In this document: positions 26,276-64,000 of the stretch, one piece after another
Layout of the letters: each line of letters opens with the position of its first letter
Position numbering within the stretch: the first letter of the stretch is position 1
Made by a program: the position numbers and the translations under genes
From: Candidatus Omnitrophota bacterium
GTDB taxonomy: Bacteria; Omnitrophota; Gorgyraeia; JAHJTE01
Direction: 5' to 3'
Assembly: GCA_018830005.1 (NCBI GenBank)
Contig: JAHJTE010000001.1
Span: 709,624 to 773,623, forward strand
Length of the DNA stretch: 64,000 nucleotides
The notes under the pieces: generated by a model
Databases searched by the model: none
Seen by the model: the letters and a program-made list of their open reading frames with translations, nothing else
What the model was told of the DNA's origin: nothing

Positions 26276-26305
26276 TTGACTTTGTAATAGTTAGGTGTCT
26301 ATAAT
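26276..26305 (+). promoter_or_regulatory. sigma70-type promoter TTGACT-N18-TATAAT for the riboswitch-pilA transcript
   Basis: TTGACT at 26276-26281, TATAAT at 26300-26305, about 50 nt upstream of the GEMM element. Confidence 0.5.
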
Positions 26306-26352
26306 ATATTTTACAGGGCCTAATTTTTATGGTATACTTGAGGTAACATTGA

Positions 26353-26468: not shown

Positions 26469-26578
26469 GCCGGGACTAATAAATGTCAAGCCAGAGGAAA
26501 ACGAAATTATTATTATTTTTCTAGAAACTGGGTTGATATGATAAGTTCAATCAAGGCCAAGAGAGGAGGTTGTTAATT

Positions 26579-27007: not shown

Positions 27008-27035
27008 GGATTCAACTTAAGGATTTACGAGAAAA

Positions 27036-27066
27036 GGCGCTTCTTTTTAAGAGGCGCCTTTTTTCT
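27036..27066 (+). terminator. intrinsic terminator after pilA
   Basis: GGCGCTTCT-ttta-AGAGGCGCC hairpin followed by TTTTTTCT. Confidence 0.65.
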
Positions 27067-27086
27067 AACTAGATATCTTTAAAGGA

Positions 27087-50499: not shown

Positions 50500-52227
50500 T
50501 TATTTAGTAGGAGGCCTTTCTGGTATGAGGAAAACACACACCTTGTTTCTACCTGTCTCTTTGGCTTTATAAAGCGCCTTGTCAGCGAAAGAGATTAATT
50601 CTTTAGGGGTCTGGGCATCTGTCTCAGTTAAGGATGCGATTCCTATACTGATTGTTACCTTTAGAGGCTGGTTCCCTTTATAAGGGAAGTTAAATTCTTC
50701 AATAGATTTTCTTAGACGTTCAGCGTAGATACTGGCGCCTTTTGCAGTTGTATTAGGCAAAATACAGCAGAATTCTTCACCGCCGTAACGGGCCACGACA
50801 TCCACTCTGCGGCTGCTCTCCTGGATGATCCTAGCAACATTCTTTAAGATTACATTTCCTTCTTCATGCCCGTAAGTGTCGTTTACTTTTTTAAAGTGGT
50901 CAACATCCATTATCAAAAATGTAAGTTGAGTATTTTCCTCTTTTGCGTGTGCAAATTCAGAATCAAGTTTAAGTATTAGATAGCGATGTACAAAGAGTCC
51001 TGTGAGCCCATCAGTAATCGCCATAGTTTTTAAGATTGCTGCCTCAACCAATAAGCGCATATATTTGTATGTCTCCGTGCCCAGATACAAAAATGCGGCA
51101 ATAAATATCGGACCAAAGTAGTCAAAGGATAAGTTTTGATAGGAAAGCAGAAAGGAAACAAGCATAAGCCCTAAAAGCTCTAGCGCCAAAAGAAGGGAAC
51201 CTTTAAGGATTGAGAGTTTATAGGTGAATATTGCGGTGCAAATTGCAACTATTAGAATCAACAGGATTGAGAAAATCTCAGGCGTCTCTTTTAGAAAATT
51301 TCCTGATAAGTACATTAGGATTTCATTGGCATTGATTACTACCCCTGGCATCAGGCCCAGGGGGGTAGGGTAGACATCGTGAAAGATTTCAGCAGTCGTG
51401 CCGACGAGAATAATCTTTTTGTGGATACTTGCTTTACTAGCAGTTTTATTGATTATTTTATGAAAGGGGATGATTTCAAAGTCTTTATTTTTTGCCTGGT
51501 AATTAATCAATGCTGTGCCTTTTTCTGAAAGAGGAATGATTACTTGCTTTGTTGTTTTTGCCACATCTTTTAGATTGATAAGCATTCTGCGATTATTAAG
51601 TGAGACGTCGTTTTTAATATCGCTTTCGTGATAGCGCAAAAAGGTCTTTAGTCCGAAAGAGGTTTTTAGTATTCCCGGAAGGTCTTTTCTTGGAAACAGG
51701 AGGCGGCAATTACGCACGGTTAAATCTTTATCGCGTGTCTTGTTAACAAAGCCAAAGCCTAAGGCTGCTTTTTGCAAAGGCAGATAAGGTTCATTATAAC
51801 TTTTATCCGGGGCAATGTAACTTGCAAGAATTACATTGCCTGCATTTTTAATTGCCTCAGCCAGTGCCGAATCATCATCCTTATTATTGCTTTCTCCTGT
51901 AAATACCATATCCAGACTAATGATCTTTGGTCTGTATTCATTTAGGTTATCAATAAATTCACTCAAGAAACTTCGTGACCAGGGCCATTTTTTCTGCAAG
52001 ACCATGAATGATTCGTCATCAATAACAACAAGGCTGATCTCTTTTAATTCTTTGGGTTTAGGTTTTAACTGATAAGTAAGGCGATTAAACAAATCAGCAG
52101 TTTTTAACGAAAGGATATTTAAAAAAGTAATTTTATGGGAGGAAAAAGAATAAGCCAGGCTTATAATCATCGCCACACAGATTACCTTTATCAGATTCTT
52201 ATCCCAGGATATCTTTTTCTTTTTCAT
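50500..52227 (-). CDS. CHASE2 sensor-domain diguanylate cyclase (canonical GGEEF, RxxD I-site present)
   Basis: N-terminal periplasmic CHASE2-like region, three C-terminal TM helices, GGDEF domain with DVDHFKKVNDTYGHEEGN and RRVDVVARYGGEEF. Confidence 0.85.
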   Translation of the reverse strand: MKKKKISWDKNLIKVICVAMIISLAYSFSSHKITFLNILSLKTADLFNRLTYQLKPKPKELKEISLVVIDDESFMVLQKKWPWSRSFLSEFIDNLNEYRPKIISLDMVFTGESNNKDDDSALAEAIKNAGNVILASYIAPDKSYNEPYLPLQKAALGFGFVNKTRDKDLTVRNCRLLFPRKDLPGILKTSFGLKTFLRYHESDIKNDVSLNNRRMLINLKDVAKTTKQVIIPLSEKGTALINYQAKNKDFEIIPFHKIINKTASKASIHKKIILVGTTAEIFHDVYPTPLGLMPGVVINANEILMYLSGNFLKETPEIFSILLILIVAICTAIFTYKLSILKGSLLLALELLGLMLVSFLLSYQNLSFDYFGPIFIAAFLYLGTETYKYMRLLVEAAILKTMAITDGLTGLFVHRYLILKLDSEFAHAKEENTQLTFLIMDVDHFKKVNDTYGHEEGNVILKNVARIIQESSRRVDVVARYGGEEFCCILPNTTAKGASIYAERLRKSIEEFNFPYKGNQPLKVTISIGIASLTETDAQTPKELISFADKALYKAKETGRNKVCVFLIPERPPTK

Positions 52228-52435
52228 TGTAAAATTAGTCTAGCATAAAAGTGGGGTTTAGGCAAGGCTAAAATCTCTGAGTATGTTTTTATAACTTTAA
52301 CATTAGCAATAGGTTGCATTAAGGATATCTTTTGTTTTCAGCTTGAAATCATGCATTGTCTATGTTATACTTAAATTGTTAGGAAATAAGCTCGAAAAAA
52401 CCCTGAATCTAGTGTTCTGTATAGGGCATTAGTCG

Positions 52436-52604
52436 GAAAAGGCAAACCATTTGAAAGAATGGGGCGGATTGAAGTGTCTGGCTTGATAAGAGCCGCAAAG
52501 CTAAAAGAGCCTACGTCCTGAATTTTTAGGATAGGGTAGTCAGCTGCCGAGATTAAGGTTTGTAACCCTATTCTTTTGTAAAAAAATAGGGTTTTTTATT
52601 TTTA
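52436..52604 (+). ncRNA. c-di-GMP-I (GEMM) riboswitch-like leader with terminator (copy 3, extended variant)
   Basis: GGCAAACC-ATTT-GAAA-GAATGG-GGCGG[...GGCTTGATAAGAGCC]GCAAAGC. Terminator AACCCTATTC...AATAGGGTT plus T-run directly before the ATG at 52617. Confidence 0.8.
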
Positions 52605-52616
52605 TGAGGCCTTAAG

Positions 52617-53282
52617 ATGAAAAGAAAAGGTTTTAGTTCATTAGAGTTAATAATTGGCTTAGCCCTTACGGCTATTATGGCTACTATGGGCATTGTTAAT
52701 TTCAGTAGCCAGGATGCGTTATTGCTTGATGCTGCAGCCCAAAAAGTTGTCTCTGACTTAAATTACGCCAGGATGTTGGCTATTGACATGGGAGAGCAAA
52801 GCGAATATACTTATTCTGGAGGCGAAGCAGGCGAGGAGGCAGGCAACTTTGTGGTTATGGATTTTAGTGATGAGGCTTCAACTCTTCCTAGTTCTTATCG
52901 CGCTGTTCCTGCGTTACAGCTGCCTGCAGAAACTGGAGATCCTGTTGGCACAAGAATTAGTGTGTTATATGAACCGGTAGTGAGAAATATTACAGAAAAA
53001 GTTGAACTTTTTTTTCCTAGTGAAGATGATTTTAAACAAGTCAAGATACAATCTGTAGACTTTGGCGATGACGGATCAGGCGGCGCTTATAACGCTGTTC
53101 GTTTTGAAGGACCTACAGGCAGACCAATGAACGGTACCTGGGTTATGGGGAATGATGAAAATGCTTATTTTTCAACTGATACAGGATTGGGAAGTTCAGG
53201 TGGCATTATTGTTGTAGAGTATAATGGCAGAACTAAGATAGTCAGGATTTCTCGTATCGGAAGGATTACTATTGAAAATTAA
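52617..53282 (+). CDS. prepilin-type pilin-like protein, KG|FSSLELIIGLALT
   Basis: ATG with a GAGG RBS. Class III signal peptide. 221 aa with a Gly-rich C-terminal domain. Confidence 0.7.
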   Translation: MKRKGFSSLELIIGLALTAIMATMGIVNFSSQDALLLDAAAQKVVSDLNYARMLAIDMGEQSEYTYSGGEAGEEAGNFVVMDFSDEASTLPSSYRAVPALQLPAETGDPVGTRISVLYEPVVRNITEKVELFFPSEDDFKQVKIQSVDFGDDGSGGAYNAVRFEGPTGRPMNGTWVMGNDENAYFSTDTGLGSSGGIIVVEYNGRTKIVRISRIGRITIEN

Positions 53283-53790
53283 TAATATTAGTAACAGATT
53301 GCATAAACTGTTAATTTTAAAAGCTCCATCAGGTCTATCACTGATGGAGCTTTTGGTTGTTATTGTCATTATCGCAGTATCCTTATTGCCTCTCTATGCC
53401 TTATTCAATCAAGCAATACTAGCCCATGTAACTGCTCAAGTTATGACTACTTCTTCTTATCTTGGCCAGTATGCTATGGAAAGTATGTTGTCCAAGGATT
53501 TTTTTGAGCTTCTTAACGAACTTGATAGTGATGTGCATTCTTATGGCAACGATACTGTCTTTGCTGGCCCTTTTTCTAAGTATAAATACACAATAGAGGT
53601 TGATGCTATTGATCCTGAATACGGTGGCGCTGGAGGGGATTTAGCTGATATAAGTGCGAGAGTTAGTTCAGCTGATGGCGTTGCAAGCGGCAGTTATCTG
53701 CGTATCTATGTAAGGATAACAAATGATATTCAGCCCGGTAAGCAATTAGAACTCTACAGTATAGTCACACCAGCAGGAGACGGGTATTGA
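53272..53790 (+). CDS. prepilin-like pseudopilin, ...APSG|LSLMELLVVIVIIAV
   Basis: The track start is a TTG overlapping the upstream gene, so the true start is uncertain. Methylation-type motif with L at +1. Confidence 0.55.
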   Translation: MKINNISNRLHKLLILKAPSGLSLMELLVVIVIIAVSLLPLYALFNQAILAHVTAQVMTTSSYLGQYAMESMLSKDFFELLNELDSDVHSYGNDTVFAGPFSKYKYTIEVDAIDPEYGGAGGDLADISARVSSADGVASGSYLRIYVRITNDIQPGKQLELYSIVTPAGDGY

Positions 53791-53791
53791 T

Positions 53792-54331
53792 ATGAAAACA
53801 AAAGGGTTTACTCTTATAGAAATGGTTATTAGCATTGCGGTTTTAGCTATTATTGCTGTAGTGCTTACCCCTATTGTATTACAATCAATAGATTTATTTT
53901 TGATGTCCAGAACTCAAGAGGTACTTGCTAATGAATCAAGATTTGCCATGAATTGGATGTCAGAAGAAATAAAAACAGAATGCGCAAGTTTCAATACTAT
54001 TGACGGTATGAGTTTGACATTTACAACCTGTGCAACGTGTGATCCTCCCAATACACCGATTTCCTATGATTGGGATAGTGCTAATAATAGATTGATTCGA
54101 ACAGTTGGCGGAGGAGACGACAACGACGATATTTTAGCTGAAAGAGTAAGTTTTGCAGAGTTTCGGGTTTTTGATACAGTTGATTTAGATATGTCGGCAG
54201 GACAGACTAACGTGAGTGATTTCAGTACGTTTGATGTAAGATTTGTGCAGATAAGATTAGCGATAACAGATGATACTGGAACAAAGGCCTATAGCCTTGT
54301 AACTCGGATTATGCCGCGTTATCTGCAATAG
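53792..54331 (+). CDS. prepilin-type minor pilin, KG|FTLIEMVISIAVLAII
   Basis: ATG start, AGGAGA RBS, canonical GFTLIEM motif. 179 aa. Confidence 0.7.
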   Translation: MKTKGFTLIEMVISIAVLAIIAVVLTPIVLQSIDLFLMSRTQEVLANESRFAMNWMSEEIKTECASFNTIDGMSLTFTTCATCDPPNTPISYDWDSANNRLIRTVGGGDDNDDILAERVSFAEFRVFDTVDLDMSAGQTNVSDFSTFDVRFVQIRLAITDDTGTKAYSLVTRIMPRYLQ

Positions 54332-54334
54332 CCA

Positions 54335-56917
54335 GTGTTGATGATGCTAAGTTTTAAATTTAACAGAAAATCCTTTGCCTTAATTCTGGCGCTGTGGATT
54401 CTGGTTGCCTTTAGCGTTATTGCCATGACAGCGATGTATGTGGTAAGCCGCAAACTTGATGAATATGTAAACCAGATAAATTCGCTTAAAGGTCAGTATT
54501 TAGCAGAATCAGCCAAGAATTACTTTTTAGAATATGTCACACCTTTTGATAATGATTTGATGGGCAACCCCCAGATAAACAAGGAATTAGGAGGAGAAAA
54601 CTTTCAATTTAGTATAAATTATGACACTGACCCTGCTCCTACAGCACGAACTGCAAGTATGACCCTTACCGGAAGCTCTCCTGGAGTTAACCGCTTTATA
54701 AGCTTGAATATAATTGAAGATGAAAATCAGAATGATGAAATAATTAAAAAAGTTAAGAAATACAATGCGGTTATTAAGAATCAGAACCCGATTACCTTAG
54801 AGGATGTGTGTATCACCAGAGGTTGTACTGAGTGGTATACTGCGGCTGATTGTGTTGACAACTGTCCTTCAACCAGTGGCGCTACTCCCGACGGTTGTTG
54901 TGAAGTATGTTATAGCTCGAGTAACTGCACTGATGCCTGTCCTTCAACCAGTGGTGGTAGTCCGAGTGGTTGTTGTGAGGGCTGTTATAGCTCAAGCAAC
55001 TGCACTGATGCCTGTCCTTCAACCAACTACTGTTGCGAAGGATGCTACAACTCAAGCAACTGCACTGACTCCTGCCCTTCAACTAGTTCCTGTTGCGAAG
55101 GATGCTACAACTCAAGCAACTGCACTGACTCCTGCCCTTCAACTAGTTCCTGTTGCGAAGGATGCTACAACTCAAGCAACTGCACTGATACCTGTCCTTC
55201 TACTAGTTCCTGTTGTGAAGGCTGTTATAGCTCAAGCAACTGCACTGACTCCTGCCCTTCAACTAGTTCCTGTTGCGAGGCATGTTATAGCTCAAGCAAC
55301 TGCACTGACTCCTGCCCTTCAACTAGTTCCTGTTGTGAAGGCTGTTATAGTTCTTGTTTTAGTGCTGTTACTAATAATTATTATAATGGGGATTGCAGCC
55401 AAGACACTGCTGCTAGTTGCTGTCTTTCTTCTGTGCCTTCAGGCTATGAATACTGTTGTGAGGCAGTTTCCTGTCAATGTCAGACAGCAGCATATCCGTG
55501 TAAAACTGTGTGTTGTCCAGAGTCAGACTATCCAACTTGGAGTACGACTTGTGATGCTAGTTATAGCTGCGATTCAAATTGGGAGCAGTCTTGCATTGAG
55601 ACGGGATGGTGTGCTTGCTCATTAGAAAGAGAGACTGGTTTTATTCTAGCAGGCGGGGAACCACAATGTCCGTGTTGTCTAGAATATGGGGATTGGACTT
55701 GTAAGACTATAAAGTTAGCATGTCCAGGCGGATGGAAGACCTCCTGCAGTAACTACGAATGTAGTAATTATGATTGTAGTGATTACGAATGTAGTAATTA
55801 TGAGTGTAGTAATTATGAATGTAGTAATTATGAGTGCAGAAACTACGACTGCAAAAACTATAAATGTAAGACAGAAGATTGCACAGCATGGCGTTCGCCA
55901 ACATTTCATAGCACTACCTACTTTGACGTATCAAGCGTCCAAGTAACTACAAACTATTCTCCCACTGCGAATCAGGCAATATGGGGAGAGTCCACTGACG
56001 CTAAGAACCTCTATGTAAATGGTAGCCTAGACCTTGATAATATCAGTGATATTACAAAATATGGTGTCTGGGGTGATGCCTATGCAAAGGATGCAATAAC
56101 TGATACTATTGGTGCAATACATGGTAGTGAGTTTGAGAATTGTAACTCAGTCGCAAATCCTGATGAATGTAGCTGGTCAGTTACAAAACCCGCAATAGAT
56201 ACAGCTTATTATGATAGGTTATTTGTTAAGGCGCAGGCTATGACTGCAGGCGATTTGCCAGATATAACCACTACCTCTTCAGGCTCCTCTGATCGACAAC
56301 TAAAAGGAAAGAATATTTTTGTAAATGGCAATGTTACTATTAGTACTGATAGCGATAATCCCTTGGAAGGCCCAGGGAATATTATTGCTATTGGAACAAT
56401 TACAATTAGTAATAGTGCTCATATTGAAGAGAATATTGGCCTTATCAGTAAAACCGCAGTTAATATTGGTCAGTCAGCGCGTGTTGGTAGGGCCAAGACC
56501 GGGGATACAAGTGGTGAATTTATTCAAGGAAAAGGCGTATTTATCTATGTTGCTAGAGATGCAGGCACAACTGTAGTAGATTTAGGATATTATTCCAAGA
56601 CAAAGGCCTATATCTTAGTAGTGCCGCATACATCTGGTACCACAGAAAATACAATAAAGGTTAGTGACTACCATGATGATGCCTCTCCTGATGATAATCG
56701 TTATGCCCGGCTTCAGGGTTTAATCTATACTGAAGGTCTTCATGATGAGACTGGTGAGGTTTACGGCTATATTTATACAGACAATCTAACCAATGACCAG
56801 ATAGTAATGTTGCGGCTGCTTGAGGATGATGTTTCTGGAACTCCTGTTGAATCACAGCGGCCCATAAAAATCAGAGGCCTTTATAACATTGGCATAGCCA
56901 ACCTTACTTATAAATAG
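54335..56917 (+). CDS. 860-aa PilX-N-like pilus protein with a hyper-Cys-rich tandem-repeat stalk and a beta-helix-like C-terminal domain
   Basis: GTG start. N-terminus FALILALWILVAFSVIAMTAMYVVSRK (PilX_N-like). About 8 copies of CCEGCYNSSNCTDSCPSTSS and about 8 copies of CSNYE. The C-terminus (NIFVNGNVTISTDSD...GNIIAIGTITISNS) resembles the 500-aa PilX-like protein. Confidence 0.7.
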   Translation: MLMMLSFKFNRKSFALILALWILVAFSVIAMTAMYVVSRKLDEYVNQINSLKGQYLAESAKNYFLEYVTPFDNDLMGNPQINKELGGENFQFSINYDTDPAPTARTASMTLTGSSPGVNRFISLNIIEDENQNDEIIKKVKKYNAVIKNQNPITLEDVCITRGCTEWYTAADCVDNCPSTSGATPDGCCEVCYSSSNCTDACPSTSGGSPSGCCEGCYSSSNCTDACPSTNYCCEGCYNSSNCTDSCPSTSSCCEGCYNSSNCTDSCPSTSSCCEGCYNSSNCTDTCPSTSSCCEGCYSSSNCTDSCPSTSSCCEACYSSSNCTDSCPSTSSCCEGCYSSCFSAVTNNYYNGDCSQDTAASCCLSSVPSGYEYCCEAVSCQCQTAAYPCKTVCCPESDYPTWSTTCDASYSCDSNWEQSCIETGWCACSLERETGFILAGGEPQCPCCLEYGDWTCKTIKLACPGGWKTSCSNYECSNYDCSDYECSNYECSNYECSNYECRNYDCKNYKCKTEDCTAWRSPTFHSTTYFDVSSVQVTTNYSPTANQAIWGESTDAKNLYVNGSLDLDNISDITKYGVWGDAYAKDAITDTIGAIHGSEFENCNSVANPDECSWSVTKPAIDTAYYDRLFVKAQAMTAGDLPDITTTSSGSSDRQLKGKNIFVNGNVTISTDSDNPLEGPGNIIAIGTITISNSAHIEENIGLISKTAVNIGQSARVGRAKTGDTSGEFIQGKGVFIYVARDAGTTVVDLGYYSKTKAYILVVPHTSGTTENTIKVSDYHDDASPDDNRYARLQGLIYTEGLHDETGEVYGYIYTDNLTNDQIVMLRLLEDDVSGTPVESQRPIKIRGLYNIGIANLTYK
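54858..55355 (+). repeat. in-frame 60-bp tandem repeat array (about 8 units; the two 5' units are 75 bp)
   Basis: Units 55021-55080, 55081-55140 and 55141-55200 are near-identical (ctgttgcgaaggatgctacaactcaagcaactgcactgactcctgcccttcaactagttc). The period coincides with the 60-column lines of the sequence listing. Confidence 0.9.
55745..55865 (+). repeat. in-frame 15-bp tandem repeat (tgtagtaattatgaa, about 8 units) encoding (CSNYE)n
   Basis: Read directly. Protein: CSNYECSNYDCSDYECSNYECSNYECSNYECRNYDCKNYKC. Confidence 0.85.
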
Positions 56918-56953
56918 CCTTCCTAGATAGACCCCAAATTTCAAACCAACTAC

Positions 56954-56995
56954 TAATCTTTCAATGGCTGCGCTGTTGGTTTTTGGATTTATTTG
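56954..56995 (+). terminator. possible terminator after the 860-aa gene
   Basis: AACCAAC...GTTGGTT stem with a long loop, then TTTTGG. Confidence 0.3.
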
Positions 56996-57175
56996 TTTCT
57001 GTATTTGTAACTTTAATATAGCAATATGTTGTATAAGATAAAAAAATATTGCTTAGCCTTGAAATATAACAGGAGGTATGTTATATTTTATGTTGACAAT
57101 TTAGAAATGAAGCGAAAAGTCCCGAATCTAGTAGTTTAGGTGTCGGGATCCCTTCTAAAATGCTAAATATTTTAG

Positions 57176-57343
57176 AAGGGGGCAAACCATTTGAAAGAAT
57201 GGGGCGGGCCGAGTGCCTGGTCCTAATAAGGACCGCAAAGCTAAAGAGCCTAAGTCCTGAATTTTCAGGATATGGTAGTCAGTTGCCGAAGTCAAAACAG
57301 CAATTTACTACCCTATTCTTTTAAGTGGAATAGGGTTTTTTTA
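57176..57343 (+). ncRNA. c-di-GMP-I (GEMM) riboswitch-like leader with terminator (copy 4, extended variant)
   Basis: GGCAAACCATTTGAAAGAATGGGGCGG[GCC...GGTCCTAATAAGGACC]GCAAAGC. GGTAGT at 57264 can pair with ACTACC of the terminator 5' arm. Terminator CCCTATTC...GAATAGGG plus T7. Confidence 0.8.
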
Positions 57344-57362
57344 TGTGAGGATAAGACTAAAG

Positions 57363-57632
57363 ATGGACAAGAAAGGTTTTACACTAGTTGAGATTATGAT
57401 TGTAGTCGGGGTTCTTGCGCTGCTAATGGCTATTTCATTGCCGATATTATCAAGAATGCGCCAAAATGCAAATGAGGCAAAAACCCAGGCTGAACTTAAT
57501 TCACTGTATAAGGCAGTTAACATGTATTATGCCTATAATGGCAGATACCCTAGCGAGTTGAGCGAATTAAGTGATTATATTACAATAGCTAACATTGATA
57601 ATAAATACGAGTTGAATTCGGATCTACCTTAA
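57363..57632 (+). CDS. short type IV pilin (89 aa), MDKKG|FTLVEIMIVVGVLALLMAISLP
   Basis: ATG at 57363 with an AGGA RBS. The track start at 57345 is a GTG inside the terminator T-tract. Shares the paralogous pilin motif with the pilin at 26579. Confidence 0.8.
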   Translation: MDKKGFTLVEIMIVVGVLALLMAISLPILSRMRQNANEAKTQAELNSLYKAVNMYYAYNGRYPSELSELSDYITIANIDNKYELNSDLP

Positions 57633-57652
57633 GAGGACTTGGTGAAGAGAAG

Positions 57653-58264
57653 ATGATTAAGAATTGTTTAGTCTCCATATTTAGTTTGATCTTGCTGCTA
57701 GGCTTATCCTTAAGTTCTGCAGAGGCAGCTTCTAATAATACCTGGTTGATTAAATCAAAGGCCACTGGTTCAGAACAGGTATTTGCTGTGTGGATGGATG
57801 GTCGGTTGAGTTCTGGCACACCTGTCTCAGAGGACGGGATTATTAGTAGTGTAACCTTTAGTGGCAGTCAATATCTTTCTGCCAAGGAATGGGTTACAAA
57901 TGAGCAGACTGGTGCAGTCCGCACTTATTGGAGCAATAAACCTATTGTCTATGGAATGGAATCAGAAGGAGGTACATACAGGATTGTCTTATCGGCAAAG
58001 AATTATGTTGGTAGCACTGGTTGGAGCCTGCCAAAGGGATATAAGAATTTTAATGTCGTTGTTAAAGTAGCTAATAAGAAGGTTGGTACAATTCTCCTAG
58101 AGGCAAGTGATACAGAGGTAAAGACAGGGTATCTGGTCCTAAATGATATCGAATCAGGCGTTCATCAGGTCAAACTAATCTGGAATAATGATAGCTACAA
58201 GCCAGCAAAGAAGTGGGATGCAAATATAGAAATCCAAAGTGTAGCATTTGAGAAGATTGAATAA
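57653..58264 (+). CDS. hypothetical secreted beta-rich protein
   Basis: Signal peptide LLLGLSLSSAEA|AS. 203 aa, no recognisable motif. Co-transcribed 20 nt after the short pilin. Confidence 0.45.
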   Translation: MIKNCLVSIFSLILLLGLSLSSAEAASNNTWLIKSKATGSEQVFAVWMDGRLSSGTPVSEDGIISSVTFSGSQYLSAKEWVTNEQTGAVRTYWSNKPIVYGMESEGGTYRIVLSAKNYVGSTGWSLPKGYKNFNVVVKVANKKVGTILLEASDTEVKTGYLVLNDIESGVHQVKLIWNNDSYKPAKKWDANIEIQSVAFEKIE

Positions 58265-58345
58265 GGTTTATTTGAGTGTACCCGCCCTTAGATATAACTT
58301 GCTGTATAGCAATGAGTTATGAAAATAATAATTATTGGCAGATTA

Positions 58346-58374
58346 TTGAAATAAGCCTTTATTTGTGTTATACT
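58346..58374 (+). promoter_or_regulatory. candidate promoter TTGAAA-N17-TATACT upstream of GEMM copy 5
   Basis: Read directly. Confidence 0.4.
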
Positions 58375-58399
58375 TTAGTTGACAATTAGTTAAGTACGA

Positions 58400-58530
58400 A
58401 AAGGGCAAACTATTCGAGAGAATAGGACGCAAAGCCAAGAGTCCTTAGCATCTTTAGATGTCAAGGATTGTCTGGTTACCGAAATTAAAAATGTGGACCT
58501 ATTCTTTTCGAAGAATAGGTTTTTTATTTA
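58400..58530 (+). ncRNA. c-di-GMP-I (GEMM) riboswitch-like leader with terminator (copy 5)
   Basis: GGCAAACTATTCGAGAGAATAGGACGCAAAGCC is almost a base-for-base match to the Vc2 aptamer core, with a GAGA GNRA loop. Terminator GACCTATTC...GAATAGG plus T-run. Confidence 0.85.
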
Positions 58531-58606
58531 TATAAAGAAAATTGCTTGAAGCTTATGTTTTATTGCGGTATACTATTAAGCGGTATATTACTAGGAGGAT
58601 CTAAAA

Positions 58607-60316
58607 ATGAACAGGAATCTTAGAAAGGGATTTAGTAGTATCGAATTTATCGGTGTGCTTACGGTAATTGTTGTAATTTTGGCATTTTCTATCCCTAAAA
58701 TTGTATCTACAAAAATAGCAGCAAACGAAACTGCCGCAATCAGCGATCTCTACAAATTGGGATCAGCGTTTGAAGCGTATCGCTCAATATACAGTACTTA
58801 CCCAAGAGATTTTTCCGACCTTAACAACCTTGCTCCGGATTTAATCGGGCAGGAGTTTGTCTCAGTCTCTGGGGCAGAATACGCTAAAGGCGGATATGCC
58901 TTTAAGATTGATTCTGTTGATACTGATATTGTGCCTACATATGCCTTTAGAATCTATGCTGAGCCAAAGGTTTCTTCGTTCAGGGTTACTGCTGGTCTTG
59001 TTAGCGGTATTCCTACTGGTAGACGCGTATTTAAGTATGGTGTGAATAAGGCAGACGCTAGTGTTGGTTATTATGCTAAGAATCCTGGAACGAGTCAGCC
59101 TGAGGCAATCTCCGACTGGATTCCTCTTACAGGAGTTGAAGGACGGGGTTTTATGGGCACATCAACAACTACACCACCTCCACCACCTCCACCACCAACT
59201 TCACCTCCTACTACAACAACTACAACAACTACTACTACAACGTCCGATACTGCACTTACATTTACAACGCAGACTATTACAACTACTATAGCCACTATAA
59301 CCACTACAACAACTACAACTAGCACAACGACTACTACACTAGGGCTAATCGGAACTACTACCACTGTACAGACAACAACAACCACAGATGTAACAGAAAC
59401 ACTTCCTGGTCTTCTTAGTTGTCCTTATGTTCATGTTTGGGATGGAAGTCAGTTTATAAAAGACAATGATATTATTCCGGGTGGAAATACTCATGAATAT
59501 ACTGATTACTATAAATTAACCAAACAGGTTAGTGCGGATAAAAATGGTGACTTATTATTTAAGATTATTGAACCTTTGGATGAAAAATCTTATCTTGATA
59601 AGGCACATCTAATAGAGGTTAGACATCCTAAGTTTGTTAATATTGCTCCTTCGCCAGAGGGTGAGATGTTCACTTATAAACAAAGGGCCTTAAGGCGACC
59701 AAGAAAGGCCATTGATACAAATGGTGAAGATATTCTAAGTCTTGTTTCTAGCAAGGGCAAAGGTGATTATCATGGTCTTCCTGGAGATTTTGTTACATTT
59801 GATTTTGGTAAGATTAAAAAAGCACCTAATGGCATGCGACTTATCTTAAGCTCTGACTTAGAATATGCCTATGCTGCTAAAAGCACGAAGTCGCTGCATA
59901 TTGAGGTGTTTCTTGAGGATAGCTATTGGCAGGAGATCTCTATAGTTCATCCTCATGAGGCCTGGGATATCTGGGCAATAGATCTAGCTTCATTTAAAGA
60001 CAAGATTGCTGGTGAGCTTAGGGTAAAGATCAACTGGAAAAATGAACACAAGCTAGATTTTGCACTTTTAGATATGTCAGCCCAGGTTCCGATTAAGATT
60101 AGAGACCTAGCCTTGGTTGAGGCAAAACACAATAAGAGATTCTTCAGTAATGTAATGTCTCTACTTAAGAAGTCTGATAATAGATATGCCAAGATGGTTA
60201 AAGGCGATGAGATATCTCTTAGATTTAGAGGTTCTAGCAAGGGCTTAGAGCCTAAAGAGGTGTTAAGTTATATCTTTGTCAGCGAGGGCTTTTATAAGCC
60301 GCTCATTAAGAAATGA
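58607..60316 (+). CDS. pilin-domain fusion protein: prepilin N-terminus + pilin globular head + Pro/Thr-rich linker + roughly 330-aa C-terminal domain of unknown function
   Basis: KG|FSSIEFIGVLTVIVVILAFSIP. A paralogous pilin motif (AISDLYKLGSAFEAYRSIYSTYP), then a P8 and poly-T linker, then a novel domain starting CPYVHVWDGSQ. Confidence 0.7.
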   Translation: MNRNLRKGFSSIEFIGVLTVIVVILAFSIPKIVSTKIAANETAAISDLYKLGSAFEAYRSIYSTYPRDFSDLNNLAPDLIGQEFVSVSGAEYAKGGYAFKIDSVDTDIVPTYAFRIYAEPKVSSFRVTAGLVSGIPTGRRVFKYGVNKADASVGYYAKNPGTSQPEAISDWIPLTGVEGRGFMGTSTTTPPPPPPPPTSPPTTTTTTTTTTTSDTALTFTTQTITTTIATITTTTTTTSTTTTTLGLIGTTTTVQTTTTTDVTETLPGLLSCPYVHVWDGSQFIKDNDIIPGGNTHEYTDYYKLTKQVSADKNGDLLFKIIEPLDEKSYLDKAHLIEVRHPKFVNIAPSPEGEMFTYKQRALRRPRKAIDTNGEDILSLVSSKGKGDYHGLPGDFVTFDFGKIKKAPNGMRLILSSDLEYAYAAKSTKSLHIEVFLEDSYWQEISIVHPHEAWDIWAIDLASFKDKIAGELRVKINWKNEHKLDFALLDMSAQVPIKIRDLALVEAKHNKRFFSNVMSLLKKSDNRYAKMVKGDEISLRFRGSSKGLEPKEVLSYIFVSEGFYKPLIKK

Positions 60317-60336
60317 TAGGCTAGATATAGGCGAAT

Positions 60337-60831
60337 ATGTTTAGAAACAATAGTCCCGTTAGAGAGCCTAACAAAGCAAAGAGGACTCTGACGGGACTTA
60401 CTTTATTTGAGGCCCTATTAGTTACGGCGGTAATCGGGATTGTTCTTGTCTTGAGTATTCCACACCTATCCAGGATGAAAATCCAGGCCAATGAGACTGA
60501 TGCAATAGCCTCTTTGGGCAAGATAGCCGCAGCCATGGAGGTTTACCGTATCCTCTATAAAACATATCCAGACAATTTAAATAAGCTCTCAATAGTCAAT
60601 CCTACTCTTTCAGCAGGACCATTGTTGAGTAGTGGCTCAAAAAGTGGCTATAATTACCGGATTGAAATTGAAGATGAGAGTTTTGATCCGAATAGCTTTA
60701 CTGTGATTGCAGAACCAAAACAGCCGCTTAAAACTGGTGAACATAGGTTTAAAGTTGACCAGAATGGAATCATATATTCTACAGACTCTCAGACCTCAAT
60801 AGTCTGGATGCCTCTGGGCGGTGCAATCTAA
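60337..60831 (+). CDS. prepilin-type pilin paralogue (long leader, ...LTG|LTLFEALLVTAVIGIVLVL)
   Basis: Shares the IASLGKIAAAMEVYRILYKTYP motif with the other paralogues. 164 aa. Confidence 0.65.
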   Translation: MFRNNSPVREPNKAKRTLTGLTLFEALLVTAVIGIVLVLSIPHLSRMKIQANETDAIASLGKIAAAMEVYRILYKTYPDNLNKLSIVNPTLSAGPLLSSGSKSGYNYRIEIEDESFDPNSFTVIAEPKQPLKTGEHRFKVDQNGIIYSTDSQTSIVWMPLGGAI

Positions 60832-60932: not shown

Positions 60933-62273
60933 CTATTTTATGAAATCAATAAATAGCCGCAATTCTCTAGGCAGGGTTCTAATGTTAATTCCAGATATTC
61001 TCTTGGCGAGATAACCTGGCCTTAGATAAAAGGAGTAATATGCGTTTCTAGTAATCGTTGTCAGTTCTTTTAGCGAGTAATTTCCACCCGGGCAGCTTTG
61101 GGGGAAATCAAGCGTTTTTCTATTTCCTTTTATACTTTCATAGAATTTAGTCCCAGGATAGGGCGTTGCAATATGGAAGGAGGCATAGGTGGGATTTAGT
61201 TGCTTAGCCAGCTCTATAGTTTTTTTGAAATCCTCTTTTATTTCTTCTGGAAATCCGAACATAAAGAAACAAGCTGTCTGGATCCCTGCTGATTTTGTTA
61301 ATTCAATACCATTTCTTATTTGTTCTAAGGTTAATTGTTTTTCTATTCTTTCTAGAATCCTTTGCGAGCCTGATTCAATTCCAAAATGAATGAGGACACA
61401 GCCTGCTTCTTTCATCATCTTTAGCATCTCAAGGCTTAGTGCATCTGGCCTAGTCTGGCAAGTCCAGCGGAAACCATGTTTGTTTTTAATCAGATAATTG
61501 CATAGTTCTTTCACCAGCTTCTTGTTGAAGGTAAAGGTCTCATCATAAAAATAGGCGTTTTTTATGCCGAACTTTGAGATTGCAGTTTCCACTTCAGCAA
61601 TAAGCTTCGTGCTGGATTTTAGCCGGCAGGTATTGCCGTACATTACCTGTAGGCAATAGGTACATTTATACGGACATCCTCTTGCACCCTCAAAGATCAT
61701 AAATCTATCACCCAGGATTTCGTAATTGTATTTGTATTGTTTTACAAGATGATAAGCAGGAAGGGGTAGAGAGTTTAAATCAACCAATTCTGTTTTTGGA
61801 TTAGAGATTATCTTGCCGCCTTGTTTATAAACTAGGCCAGGGACATATTTTTTTTCTTTCCTAGCCAGATCTAGCACCATAGACTCTGGTTCGCCCTTGA
61901 TTATGCCTGCGGCCCCACTTTTTTCTAGAACCTCCTCAGGAAAGAGGCAGCAGTGAGCGCCATAAAGATACAGATTCTCTTTTGGAAAGGCAGCGATAAA
62001 TTCAAGGAATGTCTCAAAATCAAGGTTAGGGCATTGCCATTTATAGAGAGGACTTGAGGTGATAATTATTTTATCATATTTTCTTGAAAGAGTAATTATA
62101 TCAGCTTTTGCTTTGCTATCAGCGTTTGCATCAAAGATCTCAACATCAATACCTGCCTTTTCCAATATAGCAGCACAATACATTAAATCAAGAGGAGGGA
62201 AGGTGCGGTTAAATCTGTGCCCCTTTTTACTTACCTTGGTTTTCCAGCTGGGGTTAACTAAAAGAATCTTCAT
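60933..62273 (-). CDS. B12-binding-domain radical SAM protein
   Basis: N-terminal cobalamin-binding-like Rossmann region, then a CPYKCTYC radical SAM motif. Confidence 0.8.
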   Translation of the reverse strand: MKILLVNPSWKTKVSKKGHRFNRTFPPLDLMYCAAILEKAGIDVEIFDANADSKAKADIITLSRKYDKIIITSSPLYKWQCPNLDFETFLEFIAAFPKENLYLYGAHCCLFPEEVLEKSGAAGIIKGEPESMVLDLARKEKKYVPGLVYKQGGKIISNPKTELVDLNSLPLPAYHLVKQYKYNYEILGDRFMIFEGARGCPYKCTYCLQVMYGNTCRLKSSTKLIAEVETAISKFGIKNAYFYDETFTFNKKLVKELCNYLIKNKHGFRWTCQTRPDALSLEMLKMMKEAGCVLIHFGIESGSQRILERIEKQLTLEQIRNGIELTKSAGIQTACFFMFGFPEEIKEDFKKTIELAKQLNPTYASFHIATPYPGTKFYESIKGNRKTLDFPQSCPGGNYSLKELTTITRNAYYSFYLRPGYLAKRISGINIRTLPRELRLFIDFIK

Positions 62274-63007
62274 TAATGCACCCAGAATCTGCTTTTAAGG
62301 AAGAGGGTAAAAAGATGTCTATATCTGTATATGGCCTCGTCTATAATATTAAATTTACTTTTTCTAGTGTCATCGCAATCAACAGAGATTTCAGTAATCT
62401 TACCGCCACTTTTGAAAATTCTGTAGATAGTTTCCACTACATAAGAAGTTCCTACATCCCGGCTTAGAAAATCCAGATATTGAAGCAAGGTCTTTCTTCT
62501 ATAGGCCTTGGCTGAGGGTGAATAGTCATGGAAGGGAAGTCCCATTAATAAATGCGCAATCCCTATATATATAATGCTTCCCCAGCGTCTTATCTTTGAT
62601 CTGCGTTGCGTCCCCATTACCTTAGAGCCTATGACTACCTCAAAGTCAGCTAAAAGATTGCAGGCCTTCTGAATAAAGCTCATATCAATAGTAAGATCCA
62701 TATCCAAGGATACAATTTTATCAAAGCAGGCCTTGCCAACTGCCTTACGAAAGGCCAACCCTACGCCCCTGCGACGACTAAGAATAACCTTAACATTAGA
62801 ATTTTTGCTAGCAAGCTCATTAGCTAAAAGAGCACTTTTATCAGTACAGCCGTTACAAGAAAGCATGACTTCGTAGTTGGGTTTAAGTTTCCCAAGATGA
62901 TTTAGAATCTTCGTAGTATTTTTAACAATCAAGTCTTCTTCATTATAGACCGGAATAATAACTGATATACCTTCTTTATCCATCTTTGCTCCTTTTTCTG
63001 GATGCAT
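62273..63007 (-). CDS. family-2 glycosyltransferase (polyprenyl-phosphate sugar synthase-like)
   Basis: ISVIIPVYNEEDLI N-terminus and the DxD-containing region VSLDMDL. Confidence 0.8.
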   Translation of the reverse strand: MHPEKGAKMDKEGISVIIPVYNEEDLIVKNTTKILNHLGKLKPNYEVMLSCNGCTDKSALLANELASKNSNVKVILSRRRGVGLAFRKAVGKACFDKIVSLDMDLTIDMSFIQKACNLLADFEVVIGSKVMGTQRRSKIRRWGSIIYIGIAHLLMGLPFHDYSPSAKAYRRKTLLQYLDFLSRDVGTSYVVETIYRIFKSGGKITEISVDCDDTRKSKFNIIDEAIYRYRHLFTLFLKSRFWVH

Positions 63008-63827: not shown

Positions 63828-63841
63828 TATTTATATCCTCC

Positions 63842-64000
63842 TTATTTATTTTTCATATCTTTAATTGACGCCTTGGCATGTTCTACGTAGAGGGAGTACT
63901 TATCTATAGTTGCTGCTTTTTTTAAACTCTCAAGGGCTTTTTTATTCTTGCCCAAGCTTCGGTAGATCTGTCCTATTTCATAGTAAGATTCTGCTATATA
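63842..64000 (-). CDS. 3' end of a TPR-like protein (partial; the N-terminus lies beyond the window)
   Basis: Reverse-strand translation ...YIAESYYEIGQIYRSLGKNKKALESLKKAATIDKYSLYVEHAKASIKDMKNK*. Not in the ORF track, weak support. Confidence 0.25.
   Translation of the reverse strand, partial: YIAESYYEIGQIYRSLGKNKKALESLKKAATIDKYSLYVEHAKASIKDMKNK

Follow-up and report, generated by a model that had tools for sequence, protein, structure and literature searches.

Three pilus-subunit gene sets, each headed by its own c-di-GMP-I aptamer and terminator, in an Omnitrophota bacterium

The closest described relatives of the locus analyzed here come from Clostridioides difficile and Geobacter. In C. 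difficile, all seven functional class I c-di-GMP riboswitches are OFF switches (PMC6366702). Among them, Cd1 (Cdi-1-3), at the flgB operon, acts on transcription as an OFF switch: its aptamer and terminator can form side by side, and an antiterminator competes with the aptamer and unfolds it (PMC9262584, PMC6366702). In the pilM switch, which is ON, the aptamer and the terminator exclude each other (PMC9262584). Type IV pilus genes are directly controlled by a cyclic-dinucleotide riboswitch with a terminator in C. difficile, where class II Cdi-2-4 stands before the major pilin gene pilA1, and in Geobacter, where a cGAMP-sensing GEMM-Ib aptamer stands before pilMNOPQ. Each of these is a single switch, and both are ON.

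We analyzed a window of 64,000 nucleotides from a Candidatus Omnitrophota bacterium (assembly GCA_018830005.1, contig JAHJTE010000001.1). One part of it, island B, holds three pilus-subunit gene sets, each headed by its own c-di-GMP-I aptamer and terminator: the plan of promoter, aptamer, intrinsic terminator and pilin genes is repeated three times. In contrast to Cdi-2-4 and pilM, the window carries five aptamers of class I, all with a canonical c-di-GMP pocket and predicted to be OFF switches; three of them head pilin-only cassettes. Island B shares the aptamer class of Cd1, but Cd1 controls flagellar genes, whereas these leaders head pilins, occur as several copies within one structural-gene locus and are known from sequence alone. 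All parts of island B belong to known families; only their arrangement, in itself unsurprising, is new. The leaders and the adjoining cyclase gene are as follows.

50500-52227, minus strand: CHASE2-GGDEF diguanylate cyclase gene, divergent from leader 1 (Pfam CHASE2 8.8e-47, GGDEF 3.5e-49)
52343-52371, plus strand: promoter of leader 1, TTGAAA-17-TG-TATACT, aligning with the other leader promoters
52409-52432, plus strand: 5' hairpin abutting aptamer 1 (RNAfold)
52431-52551, plus strand: c-di-GMP-I aptamer 1 (RF01051, 43.6 bits, threshold 35)
52564-52600, plus strand: intrinsic terminator 1 (sequence, folds)
56961-56979, plus strand: terminator-like hairpin closing operon 1
57059-57087, plus strand: promoter of leader 2, TTGAAA-17-TG-TATATT, followed by a TTGACAA box
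57119-57180, plus strand: two 5' hairpins of leader 2 (RNAfold)
57171-57290, plus strand: c-di-GMP-I aptamer 2 (RF01051, 50.3 bits)
57310-57343, plus strand: intrinsic terminator 2, 5' arm pairing with P2 loop and 3' strand (57193-57204)
58346-58374, plus strand: promoter of leader 3, TTGAAA-17-TG-TATACT, followed by a TTGACAA box
58395-58484, plus strand: c-di-GMP-I clan aptamer 3, compact type (RF03167, 68.9 bits, threshold 59)
58495-58528, plus strand: intrinsic terminator 3, 5' arm pairing with P2 3' strand (58417-58428)
58546-58574, plus strand: promoter-like element between terminator 3 and the B7 start codon

Aptamers were sought with cmscan against Rfam 15 on the plus strand, with gathering scores as thresholds. 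The three GEMM leaders proposed in a preliminary description all lie above these scores and pass the RF01051-type covariance check, aptamer 3 falling in RF03167; the Rfam starts lie 5 nt upstream of those first given. Each terminator is a G+C-rich hairpin with a T-run, 3' of its aptamer. The description had placed a terminator immediately before each pilin start codon, which does not hold for leader 3: a gap of 79 nt separates terminator 3 from the ATG, and the promoter-like element within it could bypass the switch. The relative L008 has TTGACA-18-TATGAT at the equivalent place. The leader promoter consensus, TTGAAA-17-TGnTATAyT, precedes each of the three aptamers, and all five leaders of the window have it at one shared position; by eye, we read the same element in three orthologous leaders of other genomes and in that of fragment L089. 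Taken as a whole, the promoter scan showed no enrichment over shuffles.

The ligand-contact positions are canonical in the Rfam alignments (the G before a GC pair, the A in CGC-A-AAGC and the CC in UGCCGA), and the island B aptamers presumably bind c-di-GMP. Aptamers 1 and 2 do depart from the consensus. Aptamer 1 has a 30-nt two-hairpin insertion after P2; aptamer 2, its paralogue, carries the same insertion and shares 76% identity with the stretch of aptamer 1 and terminator 1. Both replace the consensus GAC by GCC or ACC. Aptamer 2 departs further: its 5' junction reads GGG instead of AAA, it lacks an obvious P1, and a 5' hairpin, the second of leader 2 (57150-57180), competes with it and sequesters that junction in RNAfold. 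Because of these deviations, their affinity or even their ligand could differ, and both might sense another dinucleotide or have decayed, leaving leader 3 as the only true c-di-GMP switch. Their Rfam scores are indeed the lowest, and related leaders at this locus in L008 and L089 have an A at the G20 position, which we take to be the signature of cGAMP selectivity in Geobacter. Nevertheless, we give this proposal very little credence: all five window aptamers keep a G at the G20 position together with the CGCAAAGC and UGCCGA motifs, and both insertion hairpins covary between aptamers 1 and 2 through compensatory changes, which argue for selection. L005, L089 and L190 also have insertions at this site, so it tolerates them, and at the specificity position the GGDEF proteins nearby carry D or E instead of the Ser of Hypr enzymes.

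Which way would these leaders switch? Most likely all three are OFF switches, such that a rise in c-di-GMP would shut the pilin sets off. We predict this because aptamer and terminator do not overlap and because the terminator arm is complementary to P2 or P3, an arrangement that recurs in metagenomes. With zero nucleotides in common, aptamer and terminator can form together. The 5' arm of terminator 1, AACCCUAUUCUUUU, has its complement in the P3 3' strand (52528-52537) and also in the P2 loop and 3' strand. When transcripts were truncated past the terminator 5' arm, RNAfold predicted a duplex of at least 10 bp between the arm and P3 in leader 1, and between the arm and P2 in leaders 2 and 3. 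Equal pairing was reached by ∼1 in 100 shuffled arms for leaders 2 and 3 and by ∼9 in 100 for leader 1; by this test the complementarity was not significant for A2, L004 and L005 individually, and the terminator and antiterminator states are 0.3-5.5 kcal/mol apart. Among metagenomic sequences, 53 independent GEMM-I-like leaders show the same duplex design, with a mean duplex energy of -11.8 kcal/mol versus -8.2 for shuffled arms (Wilcoxon p = 1e-9) and with the pairing site in P2 (32 leaders) or P3 (18 leaders). One of the 53 heads a flagellar FlgE/F/G gene, a class that c-di-GMP represses in C. difficile via the Cd1 riboswitch (PMC6366702).

In the proposed mechanism, the terminator 5' arm would invade P2 or P3 of a free aptamer during transcription, forming an antiterminator, and the pilin genes would be transcribed. 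An aptamer bound to c-di-GMP would stay locked, the self-contained terminator would fold, and transcription would stop. The leaders would be OFF switches of the Cd1 type, with the divergent CHASE2-GGDEF cyclase, which has a GGEEF motif and an RxxD I-site, as the likely local source of the signal. They differ from Cd1 in the point of attack: the Cd1 antiterminator engages the aptamer 3' end, whereas the island B arm targets either the P2 loop and 3' strand or the 3' strand of P3.

The same anatomy could instead describe ON switches, in which bound c-di-GMP prevents termination, so that the pilin sets are induced at high levels. The two riboswitches of pilus genes that have been studied by experiment, C. 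difficile pilA1 (class II; PMC6366702) and Geobacter pilM (cGAMP GEMM-Ib; PMC9262584), work in this way, adhesion is usually favoured by c-di-GMP, and the MshE-type c-di-GMP-binding motifs of the PilB ATPases described below make a coherent positive logic attractive. In leader 1, a short UAUAGGG 5' of the aptamer could pair with the terminator arm CCCUAU. We nonetheless consider ON switching unlikely: complete terminator hairpins lie 10-19 nt 3' of the aptamers, and because the two have no nucleotides in common, a folded aptamer cannot block the terminator. Possible P1 extensions stop short of the terminator in leaders 2 and 3, and the conserved complementarity joins the terminator arm to interior aptamer strands, as an OFF design needs.

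Eight open reading frames follow the leaders. Six encode a class-III signal peptide, G↓(F/L)xxxE and then a hydrophobic helix (at 52617, 53272, 53792, 57363, 58607 and 60337), another is GspK/PilX-like without E5, and the remaining one encodes a Sec-secreted non-pilin. The earlier view of a pilin-only locus is borne out: Pfam and NCBIfam profile searches found no ATPase, platform or secretin in 52.4-60.8 kb. Operon 1 comprises the following.

52617-53282, plus strand: B1, 221 aa, GspH/FimU-like minor pilin, KRKG↓FSSLE (ORF motif)
53272-53790, plus strand: B2, 172 aa, PilV/GspI-like minor pilin, PSG↓LSLME (Pfam N_methyl 22.8 bits; NCBIfam PilV 1.2e-5)
53317-53356, plus strand: 16-bp perfect hairpin in the B2 signal-peptide coding region (fold z = -5.45)
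53792-54331, plus strand: B3, 179 aa, GspJ/PilW-like minor pilin, KTKG↓FTLIE (Pfam N_methyl 30 bits)
54335/54341-56917, plus strand: B4, 858-860 aa, GspK/PilX-like (ORF)

The ends of these genes overlap or abut. B1 gives weak N-terminal NCBIfam matches to XpsH and GspH, and B3 to GspJ and ComGF; gene callers shorten B2 to 148 aa and thus cut off its signal peptide. B4 combines a hydrophobic N-terminus with Cys-rich tandem repeats (54862-55350 and 55748-55848) and a beta-rich C-terminal part; it has zero matches in Pfam, NCBIfam and PDB, and the only two homologues found are both from Omnitrophota. Operon 1 resembles a priming or tip set of minor pilins whose genes follow the GspH-I-J-K order and whose fourth member is a giant Cys-repeat protein, the putative H-I-J-K roles being read only from weak N-terminal profile matches, gene order and gene size. 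Like GspH-I-J-K (T2SS) and FimU-PilV-PilW-PilX (T4aP), it has four packed genes, three small G↓FxxxE pilins and a large fourth product with a hydrophobic N-terminus without E5. Unlike in those sets, the fourth protein has ∼860 aa with Cys-rich tandem repeats; the similarity to them is confined to the N-terminal helices, far under family cut-offs, and operon 1 comes in addition to the minor-pilin set of island A, which it duplicates.

57363-57632, plus strand: B5, 89 aa, short PilA-type pilin, MDKKG↓FTLVE (Pfam N_methyl and T2SSG)
57653-58264, plus strand: B6, 203 aa, Sec-secreted beta-sandwich protein, not a pilin (signal peptide read from the ORF)

Operon 2 pairs a truncated, geopilin-like paralogue of the major pilin with a secreted protein modelled as a beta-sandwich. 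A GTG start for B5 at 57345 was replaced by the ATG at 57363. B5 is 49% identical to the island-A major pilin, and its best PDB matches are Geobacter 'geopilin domain 1' chains (E = 1e-8). B6 has no sequence similarity to PDB chains at E ≤ 5; its low-confidence AF2 model gives Foldseek matches of CBM35/36/6-like type, and its one homologue is likewise next to a short pilin. The pair resembles the split pilin PilA-N/PilA-C of Geobacter: B5 is truncated, its best solved relatives are PilA-N chains, the gene directly after it encodes a secreted protein, and the two are kept together in a second lineage (L089). However, B6 is predicted, at low confidence, to be a CBM-like jelly roll of ∼180 aa, not the small pilin head domain of PilA-C.

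58607-60316, plus strand: B7, 569 aa, modular pilin
60337-60831, plus strand: B8, 164 aa, PilA-type pilin, RTLTG↓LTLFE (Pfam ComP_DUS 28.6 bits)

In operon 3, B7 joins a PilA-type module through a Thr/Pro linker to a double beta-sandwich module of ∼290 aa. This C-terminal module is CBM32-like; it has no Pfam model and occurs elsewhere at the C-termini of secreted S8/C25 proteases and of lectin or beta-helix proteins. The fusion of pilin, linker and bulky beta-sandwich recalls PilB (vWA) and PilC (lectin) of Streptococcus sanguinis and CofB of ETEC, a modular 'grafting' strategy reported to be widespread in type IV pilins (PMC8179133, PMC9934059); B7 differs in that its grafted domain is undescribed and its pilin module is of the major-pilin (PilA) type. 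We infer an adhesive role for the beta-sandwich modules. B8 is 31.5% identical to the island-A pilin over 146 aa. B5, B7 and B8 are all paralogous to the major pilin of island A, which fits the earlier reading of the locus as a repertoire of alternative subunits.

The preliminary description also proposed a comparison of cassette content among relatives, and content does differ. The CHASE2-GGDEF gene is syntenic with a riboswitch-pilin locus in L004, L005 and L008, and in three relatives the orthologous locus beside it holds operon 3 only. MAG234 has an operon-1-like set and a different modular pilin, and fragment L089 has operon 2 followed by operon 3; these differing operon sets show that the cassettes vary. 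In L009 the neighbour of the CHASE2-GGDEF gene is a GspH-like pilin gene with no detectable aptamer in its leader. The aptamer 3 orthologues score 69.7 bits in L004, 60.8 bits in L008 and 32 bits in L005, where the aptamer carries an 86-nt insertion. Operon 3 with its aptamer 3 leader is ancestral at the locus, and it is the only operon that is.

The presumed assembly machine of these pilins lies 14 kb upstream.

21067-38729, plus strand: island A, presumed assembly machine
26348-26424: island A aptamer before the major pilin gene
32144-32230: island A aptamer before the gene of the PilX-like protein

Island A encodes an MshEN-only protein, two MshEN-bearing PilB ATPases, PilC and the major pilin, then two TPR proteins, two minor pilins, a PilX-like protein, PilM, PilO and PilQ. 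The PilB ATPases have MshE-type c-di-GMP-binding motifs. The MshEN domains of Vibrio MshE promote pilus extension, an effect that is a point against our preferred explanation. A further such point is that neither a prepilin peptidase gene nor a PilT gene is present within the window.

Could the filament instead be a short, T2SS-like secretory pseudopilus, with the cassettes as alternative pistons or tips that export B6 or neighbouring secreted proteases? The window encodes no PilT retraction ATPase, B6 is Sec-secreted, and the pilins weakly match GspG, GspH and GspJ profiles. Furthermore, B5 and the B7 family are nearest to Geobacter geopilin chains, including PDB 6vk9, a structure reportedly interpreted as a secretory, pseudopilus-like filament. 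The machinery argues otherwise: PilM (TIGR01175, 155.8, cut-off 133) and PilQ (TIGR02515, 286.9, cut-off 284.35) exceed their NCBIfam cut-offs, the ATPases score higher as PilB than as GspE, and PilO is present, while GspC, GspL and GspM were not found in the window machinery. All Gsp pseudopilin scores are far under cut-offs, and surface display is the only setting in which a 569-aa pilin with a long linker and a lectin-like module makes sense. We therefore judge a pseudopilus improbable. By its profile matches, island A is a complete type IVa pilus machinery, not a T2SS, which answers the pseudopilin alternative raised in the preliminary description.

To that description, our analysis adds the predicted OFF polarity, the types of the modules and the position of operon 3 as the only ancestral one. 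On balance, we favour the reading of island B as an accessory subunit locus for the type IVa pilus machine of island A, organized as three units under OFF switches, and consider it probable. The island B pilins would use the island-A machine, and the predicted polarity of their leaders would be opposite to that of the pilus riboswitches of C. difficile and Geobacter.

A scan of the whole window with the Rfam 15 covariance models (clan CL00126, models RF01051 and RF03167, gathering scores 35 and 59) yielded five c-di-GMP-I clan aptamers, all on the plus strand and all above the curated gathering score. Two belong to island A, the upstream type IVa pilus cluster, and three to island B, the pilin-only locus at 52.4-60.8 kb, where the preliminary description had proposed three GEMM leaders from the sequence by eye; each of the three is confirmed by the covariance models. 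GEMM RNAs owe their name to their association with membrane and motility genes. In a second assembly of the same species the scores of the island-B aptamers are identical. The elements of these leaders are as follows.

52431-52551, plus strand: aptamer 1, RF01051, 43.6 bits against 35
57171-57290, plus strand: aptamer 2, RF01051, 50.3 bits against 35
58395-58484, plus strand: aptamer 3, RF03167, 68.9 bits against 59
26348-26424 and 32144-32230, plus strand: the two island-A aptamers (Rfam 15)
52343-52371, 57059-57087 and 58346-58374, plus strand: leader promoters, TTGAAA-17-TGnTATAyT, 5' of each island-B aptamer
52564-52600, 57310-57343 and 58495-58528, plus strand: intrinsic terminators 1, 2 and 3, hairpin and T-run
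56961-56979, plus strand: terminator-like hairpin that closes the first transcription unit

By sequence, the ligand-contact nucleotides are canonical in the window's aptamers. In leaders 1-3 the alignment places a G before the G-C pair (..GGGC/AGGC AAAC), an A in CGC-A-AAGC and CC in U(G/A)CCGA, and the Rfam alignments give the same G and A, with CC in UGCCGA, for all aptamers of the window; we take these three positions to be Vc2 G20, A47 and C92. Both matches to RF03167 (the 'GGC' model) have A at the A47 column, where the model consensus has G, so that the pocket reads as canonical, and at the level of sequence these two are best read as compact canonical aptamers. Helix P2 (CCAUU-UGAAAG-AAUGG in leaders 1 and 2, CUAUUC-GAGA-GAAUAG in leader 3) carries a GNRA-type loop, and a P3 hairpin is predicted in all three leaders, as expected of the class. 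Leaders that precede a B7-like pilin gene in two relatives (L008, 9694-9776; L089, a metagenome fragment, 999-1161) carry AAUAGCAAAC and therefore have A at Vc2 position 20, which is G in canonical c-di-GMP-I. A G20-to-A change marks cGAMP-selective GEMM-Ib in Geobacter. The GGDEF protein adjoining the L008 leader has E at the specificity position, as against the Ser of Hypr enzymes, and the L089 fragment holds no GGDEF gene. We rejected a cGAMP/Hypr-GGDEF reading because the neighbouring GGDEF proteins have D or E rather than Ser and because every aptamer of the window carries G.

Aptamer 1 is a paralogue of aptamer 2 (76% identity across aptamer and terminator). The two share an extra insertion of 30 nt (52463-52494 and 57203-57233), which is placed between P2 and the closing G-C pairs and folds into two hairpins; both hairpins show compensatory changes from one copy to the other. 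Larger insertions occupy the same site in related loci (L005, 6412-6497; L089, ~1035-1118; L190, 5490-5646), where the Rfam scores fall to 32-35 bits. A structured two-hairpin insertion of 30 to ~86 nt is thus recurrent in the clade, and standard annotation would miss those riboswitches of relatives that it carries below the gathering threshold.

A perfect hairpin followed by a T-run lies 10-19 nt 3' of each island-B aptamer. Taken whole, the promoter scan did no better than chance; the element TTGAAA-17-TGnTATAyT stands at the same position in all five window leaders and in leaders of four other genomes or fragments. Since each leader has its own promoter, aptamer and terminator, island B consists of three transcription units: B1-B4 (operon 1), B5-B6 (operon 2) and B7-B8 (operon 3). 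A TTGACAA box was also observed 3-5 nt 3' of the -10 hexamer (window 57082-57099 and 58369-58385; L005 ~6361-6378; L089 ~975-992), with two window matches against 0.03 expected; as no -10 element follows it, it is probably an operator or initial transcribed element and not a second promoter. Promoter-like elements also occur 3' of the terminator, at 58546-58574 (TTGAAG-17-TATACT, between terminator 3 and the B7 start codon) and at L008 ~9881-9915 (TTGACA-18-TATGAT, between terminator and pilin start), and these could give basal expression independent of the riboswitch.

The genes that these leaders precede, and their flanks, are listed here, a slash marking the end of the prepilin leader peptide.

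50500-52227, minus strand: CHASE2-GGDEF cyclase with GGEEF motif and RxxD I-site, flanking island B
52617, plus strand: start of B1, KRKG/FSSLE
53272, plus strand: start of B2, PSG/LSLME
53792, plus strand: start of B3, KTKG/FTLIE
54335/54341-56917, plus strand: B4, ~860 aa, hydrophobic N-terminus without E5, like GspK and PilX
57363, plus strand: start of B5, DKKG/FTLVE
57653-58264, plus strand: B6, Sec signal peptide, not a pilin
58607, plus strand: start of B7, LRKG/FSSIE
60337, plus strand: start of B8, TLTG/LTLFE
60933-64000, minus strand: the other flank, a radical-SAM, glycosyltransferase and TPR block with a B12-binding radical-SAM gene and a 283-aa ORF

Six of the eight ORFs (B1, B2, B3, B5, B7 and B8) have a textbook class III signal peptide, that is, a short basic leader ending in G, then F, L or M, E at +5 and ~20 hydrophobic residues. 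The type IV pilin signature (IPR012902/PF07963, N_methyl) or TIGR02532 exceeds its cut-off in B2, B3 and B5. Pfam and NCBIfam agree in finding pilin-type signatures only within island B, and no ATPase, platform protein or secretin, which bears out its description as a pilin-only locus. The public gene calls for B2 use an internal ATG, giving a 148-aa product from which the prepilin signal peptide is lost; with a start at the TTG at 53272, which overlaps the stop codon of B1, both the motif and the N_methyl match are recovered (B2, 53272-53790). Within the signal-peptide coding region of B2 there is also a 16-bp perfect hairpin (53317-53356, z = -5.45) followed by a U-rich stretch; it spans the internal ATG chosen by the gene callers and may be an intra-operon attenuator or translational control element.

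Operon 1 may encode a priming or tip complex. Gene order, tight packing, sizes, a fourth member without E5 and weak N-terminal NCBIfam matches (B1 to XpsH/GspH, B2 to PilV, B3 to GspJ/ComGF, B4 to none) suggest that B1-B4 form a second priming or tip set of the GspH-I-J-K or FimU-PilV-PilW-PilX type. A PDB sequence search with B1, B2, B3, B4 and B6 matched nothing past the N-terminal helices. Among 5.8 billion proteins B4 finds just two homologues, both of them in Omnitrophota. Within the regions 54862-55350 and 55748-55848 it contains two types of tandem repeat that encode Cys-rich motifs: one of 60/75 nt in ~6-8 copies (CCEGCYxSSNCTDxCPSTSx) and one of 15/30 nt (YECSN). The repeat region is 135 nt shorter in the second assembly (L002), reflecting either true copy-number variation or assembly collapse.

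Operons 2 and 3 carry subunits of another kind. In a BLASTP comparison of the window pilins, B5 (49% identity over 70 aa), B8 (31.5% over 146 aa) and the first ~120 residues of B7 (31%) proved to be paralogues of the island-A major pilin, so that these operons carry PilA-type (shaft-type) variants. Among solved structures, Geobacter 'geopilin domain 1' chains are closest to B5 and to the B7 family; for B5, of 89 aa, the best PDB matches are 9egp, 7tgg and 2m7g/6vk9, all of this domain (E 1e-8 to 4e-6). B5 resembles the Geobacter split pilin in being a short pilin of the PilA-N type. The full PilA-N/PilA-C analogy for B5-B6 was rejected: the B5 side fits, but B6 shows no PilA-C similarity, and its predicted fold is not that of a pilin head. 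B6 has a single homologue and no meaningful match in a PDB sequence search (best E = 1.3, to unrelated proteins); the fold predicted for it, with low confidence, is similar to the jelly rolls of CBM35/36/6.

The pilin B7 is modular: after residues 1-190, which share homology with the pilin of island A, come a Thr/Pro linker, Cys-rich in relatives, and a C-terminal region of ~290 aa that is modelled as an independent region of beta-sandwiches (residues 272-569, window 59420-60316, pLDDT around 80-90). This region begins CPYVHVWDG..F.KDNDIIPGG and corresponds to no Pfam model. An exhaustive profile-free search found it, without the pilin module, in 1135 protein clusters, usually at the C-terminus of secreted S8/C25 peptidases and of Laminin_G_3 (lectin), beta-helix and FG-GAP proteins; one carrier is the C25 peptidase directly 3' of a relative's pilin operon (L004, 12461-15640). 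Its carriers could share it as a means of binding a target or of anchoring to the surface. The grafting of binding modules onto pilins is known to be widespread (PMC8179133). The module of ~290 aa, uncharacterised and common to a pilin and to many secreted proteases, is widespread and worth defining.

The machinery presumed to assemble these subunits lies in island A.

19.6-38.7 kb (19612-38729): island A, in order GAF-GGDEF cyclase, stand-alone MshEN protein, two MshEN-bearing PilB-type ATPases, PilC, aptamer, 145-aa major pilin, two TPR proteins, two minor pilins, aptamer, PilX_N protein, PilM, PilO and secretin

Pseudopilins next to a GspD/E/F set would have spoken against the preliminary description, but no such arrangement is seen in the window. 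By its NCBIfam scores the machine is type IVa: the secretin exceeds the cut-off of PilQ (286.9 against 284.35) but not that of GspD (258.3 against 351.35), PilM scores 155.8 against a cut-off of 133, and the two ATPases score 646.6 and 639.5 with PilB versus 594.1 and 598.3 with GspE. PilO is present, GspC, GspL and GspM were not found, and no pilin score reaches the equivalog cut-off of GspG, GspH, GspI or GspJ (best GspG 48.3 against 88.85, GspH 16.4 against 80, GspJ 19.3 against 64.85). On the evidence of PilM, PilO and PilQ we rejected a T2SS reading. PilT and PilD were not found within the window, where the ORFs at 43.1-47.6 kb were identified by synteny with L004 only. Two island-A proteins, the stand-alone MshEN protein and the first ATPase, score above the cut-off for the MshE-type c-di-GMP motif, and island A (19612-38729) combines three putative layers of c-di-GMP control on a single T4aP system.

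Comparison with relatives shows that the cassette content of the locus varies, as the preliminary description had anticipated. Three lineages (L004/L010, L005-L007 and L008) have the order S1, TyrRS, CHASE2-GGDEF (minus strand), aptamer and terminator, B7-like gene, B8-like gene, C25 peptidase, rRNA; of the three operons, only operon 3 with its riboswitch is ancestral in these lineages. In MAG234 (L009 and L190), the GGDEF gene faces an operon-1-type set, and the leader beside it in L009 has no GEMM match even at E <= 10, so that this cassette is without a recognisable aptamer. After the set come a membrane protein of 551 aa, an aptamer, a pilin of 377 aa and a B8-like pilin. The membrane protein (L190, 3722-5377, between the B4-like gene and the riboswitch) is polytopic and by eye resembles a PMT/ArnT-type glycosyltransferase. 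The riboswitch-led 377-aa pilin (L190, 5831-6964) has a different, Cys-rich C-terminal extension in place of the beta-sandwich module, which suggests that modules are swapped on a common pilin scaffold. The 1.6-kb fragment L089 holds a B5-like gene, a B6-like gene, aptamer and terminator, and a B7-like gene. B5 and B6 move together as a pair. None of the relatives examined has the radical-SAM block at the orthologous locus; their pilin operon lies directly against the gene for the C25 peptidase, and the block is therefore an insertion specific to the window's lineage. A GGDEF-protein scan of genome contigs returned only two orthologous loci, the other matches being unrelated GGDEF proteins. 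Recent horizontal acquisition of island B was considered and rejected, as its GC content (0.37-0.44) is not distinct from that of the flanks.

How would c-di-GMP act on these three operons? The terminators are self-contained and share no nucleotides with the aptamers. Landgraf et al. (PMC9262584) contrast the Cd1 OFF switch, whose aptamer and terminator can form together and face a competing antiterminator, with the pilM ON switch, in which formation of the aptamer excludes that of the terminator and vice versa. The island-B leaders share the Cd1 topology. When we folded transcripts ended after the 5' arm of the terminator, the arm paired over 10-12 bp with the 3' strand of P3 in leader 1, and over the same range with the loop and 3' strand of P2 in leaders 2 and 3. 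Shuffled arms were as stable in about 1 of 100 cases for leaders 2 and 3, which is significant, and in about 9 of 100 for leader 1, which is suggestive. The fold energies of the terminator and antiterminator states are -47.0 and -46.7 kcal/mol in leader 1, -53.9 and -59.4 in leader 2, and -40.1 and -38.8 in leader 3; by this model the two states are near-isoenergetic in leaders 1-3.

All five leaders of the window have the same arm, CCUAUUC, and for that reason we scanned metagenomes for the arm pattern. The pattern CGCAAAGC...CCTATTC...GAATAGG matched 100 metagenome stretches (listed loci L090-L169), one contig of which is an island-A homologue with both riboswitches. Of 53 distinct GEMM-I-like leaders, 32 have an arm complementary to the loop and 3' strand of P2 and 18 an arm complementary to the 3' strand of P3; the mean duplex energy is -11.8 kcal/mol versus -8.2 kcal/mol for shuffled arms (Wilcoxon p = 1e-9). 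The genes 3' of the metagenome leaders are diverse: many encode secreted proteins, others response regulators, pilins and, in L098, a flagellar FlgE/F/G protein. The CCUAUUC...GAAUAGG terminator is thus a widespread partner of GEMM-I that either acts as a mimic of aptamer helix P2 or base-pairs with the 3' strand of P3. OFF switches are characterised by a conserved antiterminator that has to unfold the aptamer, and on this modelled and analogical basis we consider it fairly probable that c-di-GMP terminates transcription of all three pilin sets. If so, the polarity is opposite to that of the two pilus riboswitches characterised so far. The overall logic would nevertheless be mixed and not uniformly negative, since the PilB ATPases bear c-di-GMP-binding MshEN domains; such domains are activating in Vibrio MshE.

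The five riboswitches might further be read as a graded, RNA-encoded programme that sets pilus composition, a reading we think unlikely. The computed balance favours the terminator by 1.3 kcal/mol in leader 3, is neutral in leader 1 and favours the antiterminator by 5.5 kcal/mol in leader 2, which also has an aptamer-sequestering hairpin. Under such a programme, as the CHASE2 cyclase next to the locus raised c-di-GMP, the pilin with the lectin module would be lost first, the alternative tip complex next and the short pilin last, and one machine would alternate between filaments that differ in tip or sheath. B5 together with B6 might then be a split, non-covalent equivalent of the fused B7.

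All components come from known families: the class I c-di-GMP riboswitch, type IV pilins, a modular pilin and a T4aP machine. What is new is the arrangement: a single pilus system carries five aptamers, and three of these each precede a pilin cassette that holds no machinery, is evolutionarily mobile and lies beside a conserved CHASE2 cyclase; the phylum and the predicted OFF polarity are also new. The P2/P3-mimicking terminator is a recurrent expression platform of class I c-di-GMP riboswitches in environmental bacteria, and may aid the prediction of ON or OFF polarity from sequence. To our knowledge, Omnitrophota is a phylum without cultured models, and its members are thought to live attached to other cells. 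The locus offers a compact, testable case of a second messenger acting on the structural repertoire of a type IV pilus and not on its motor.
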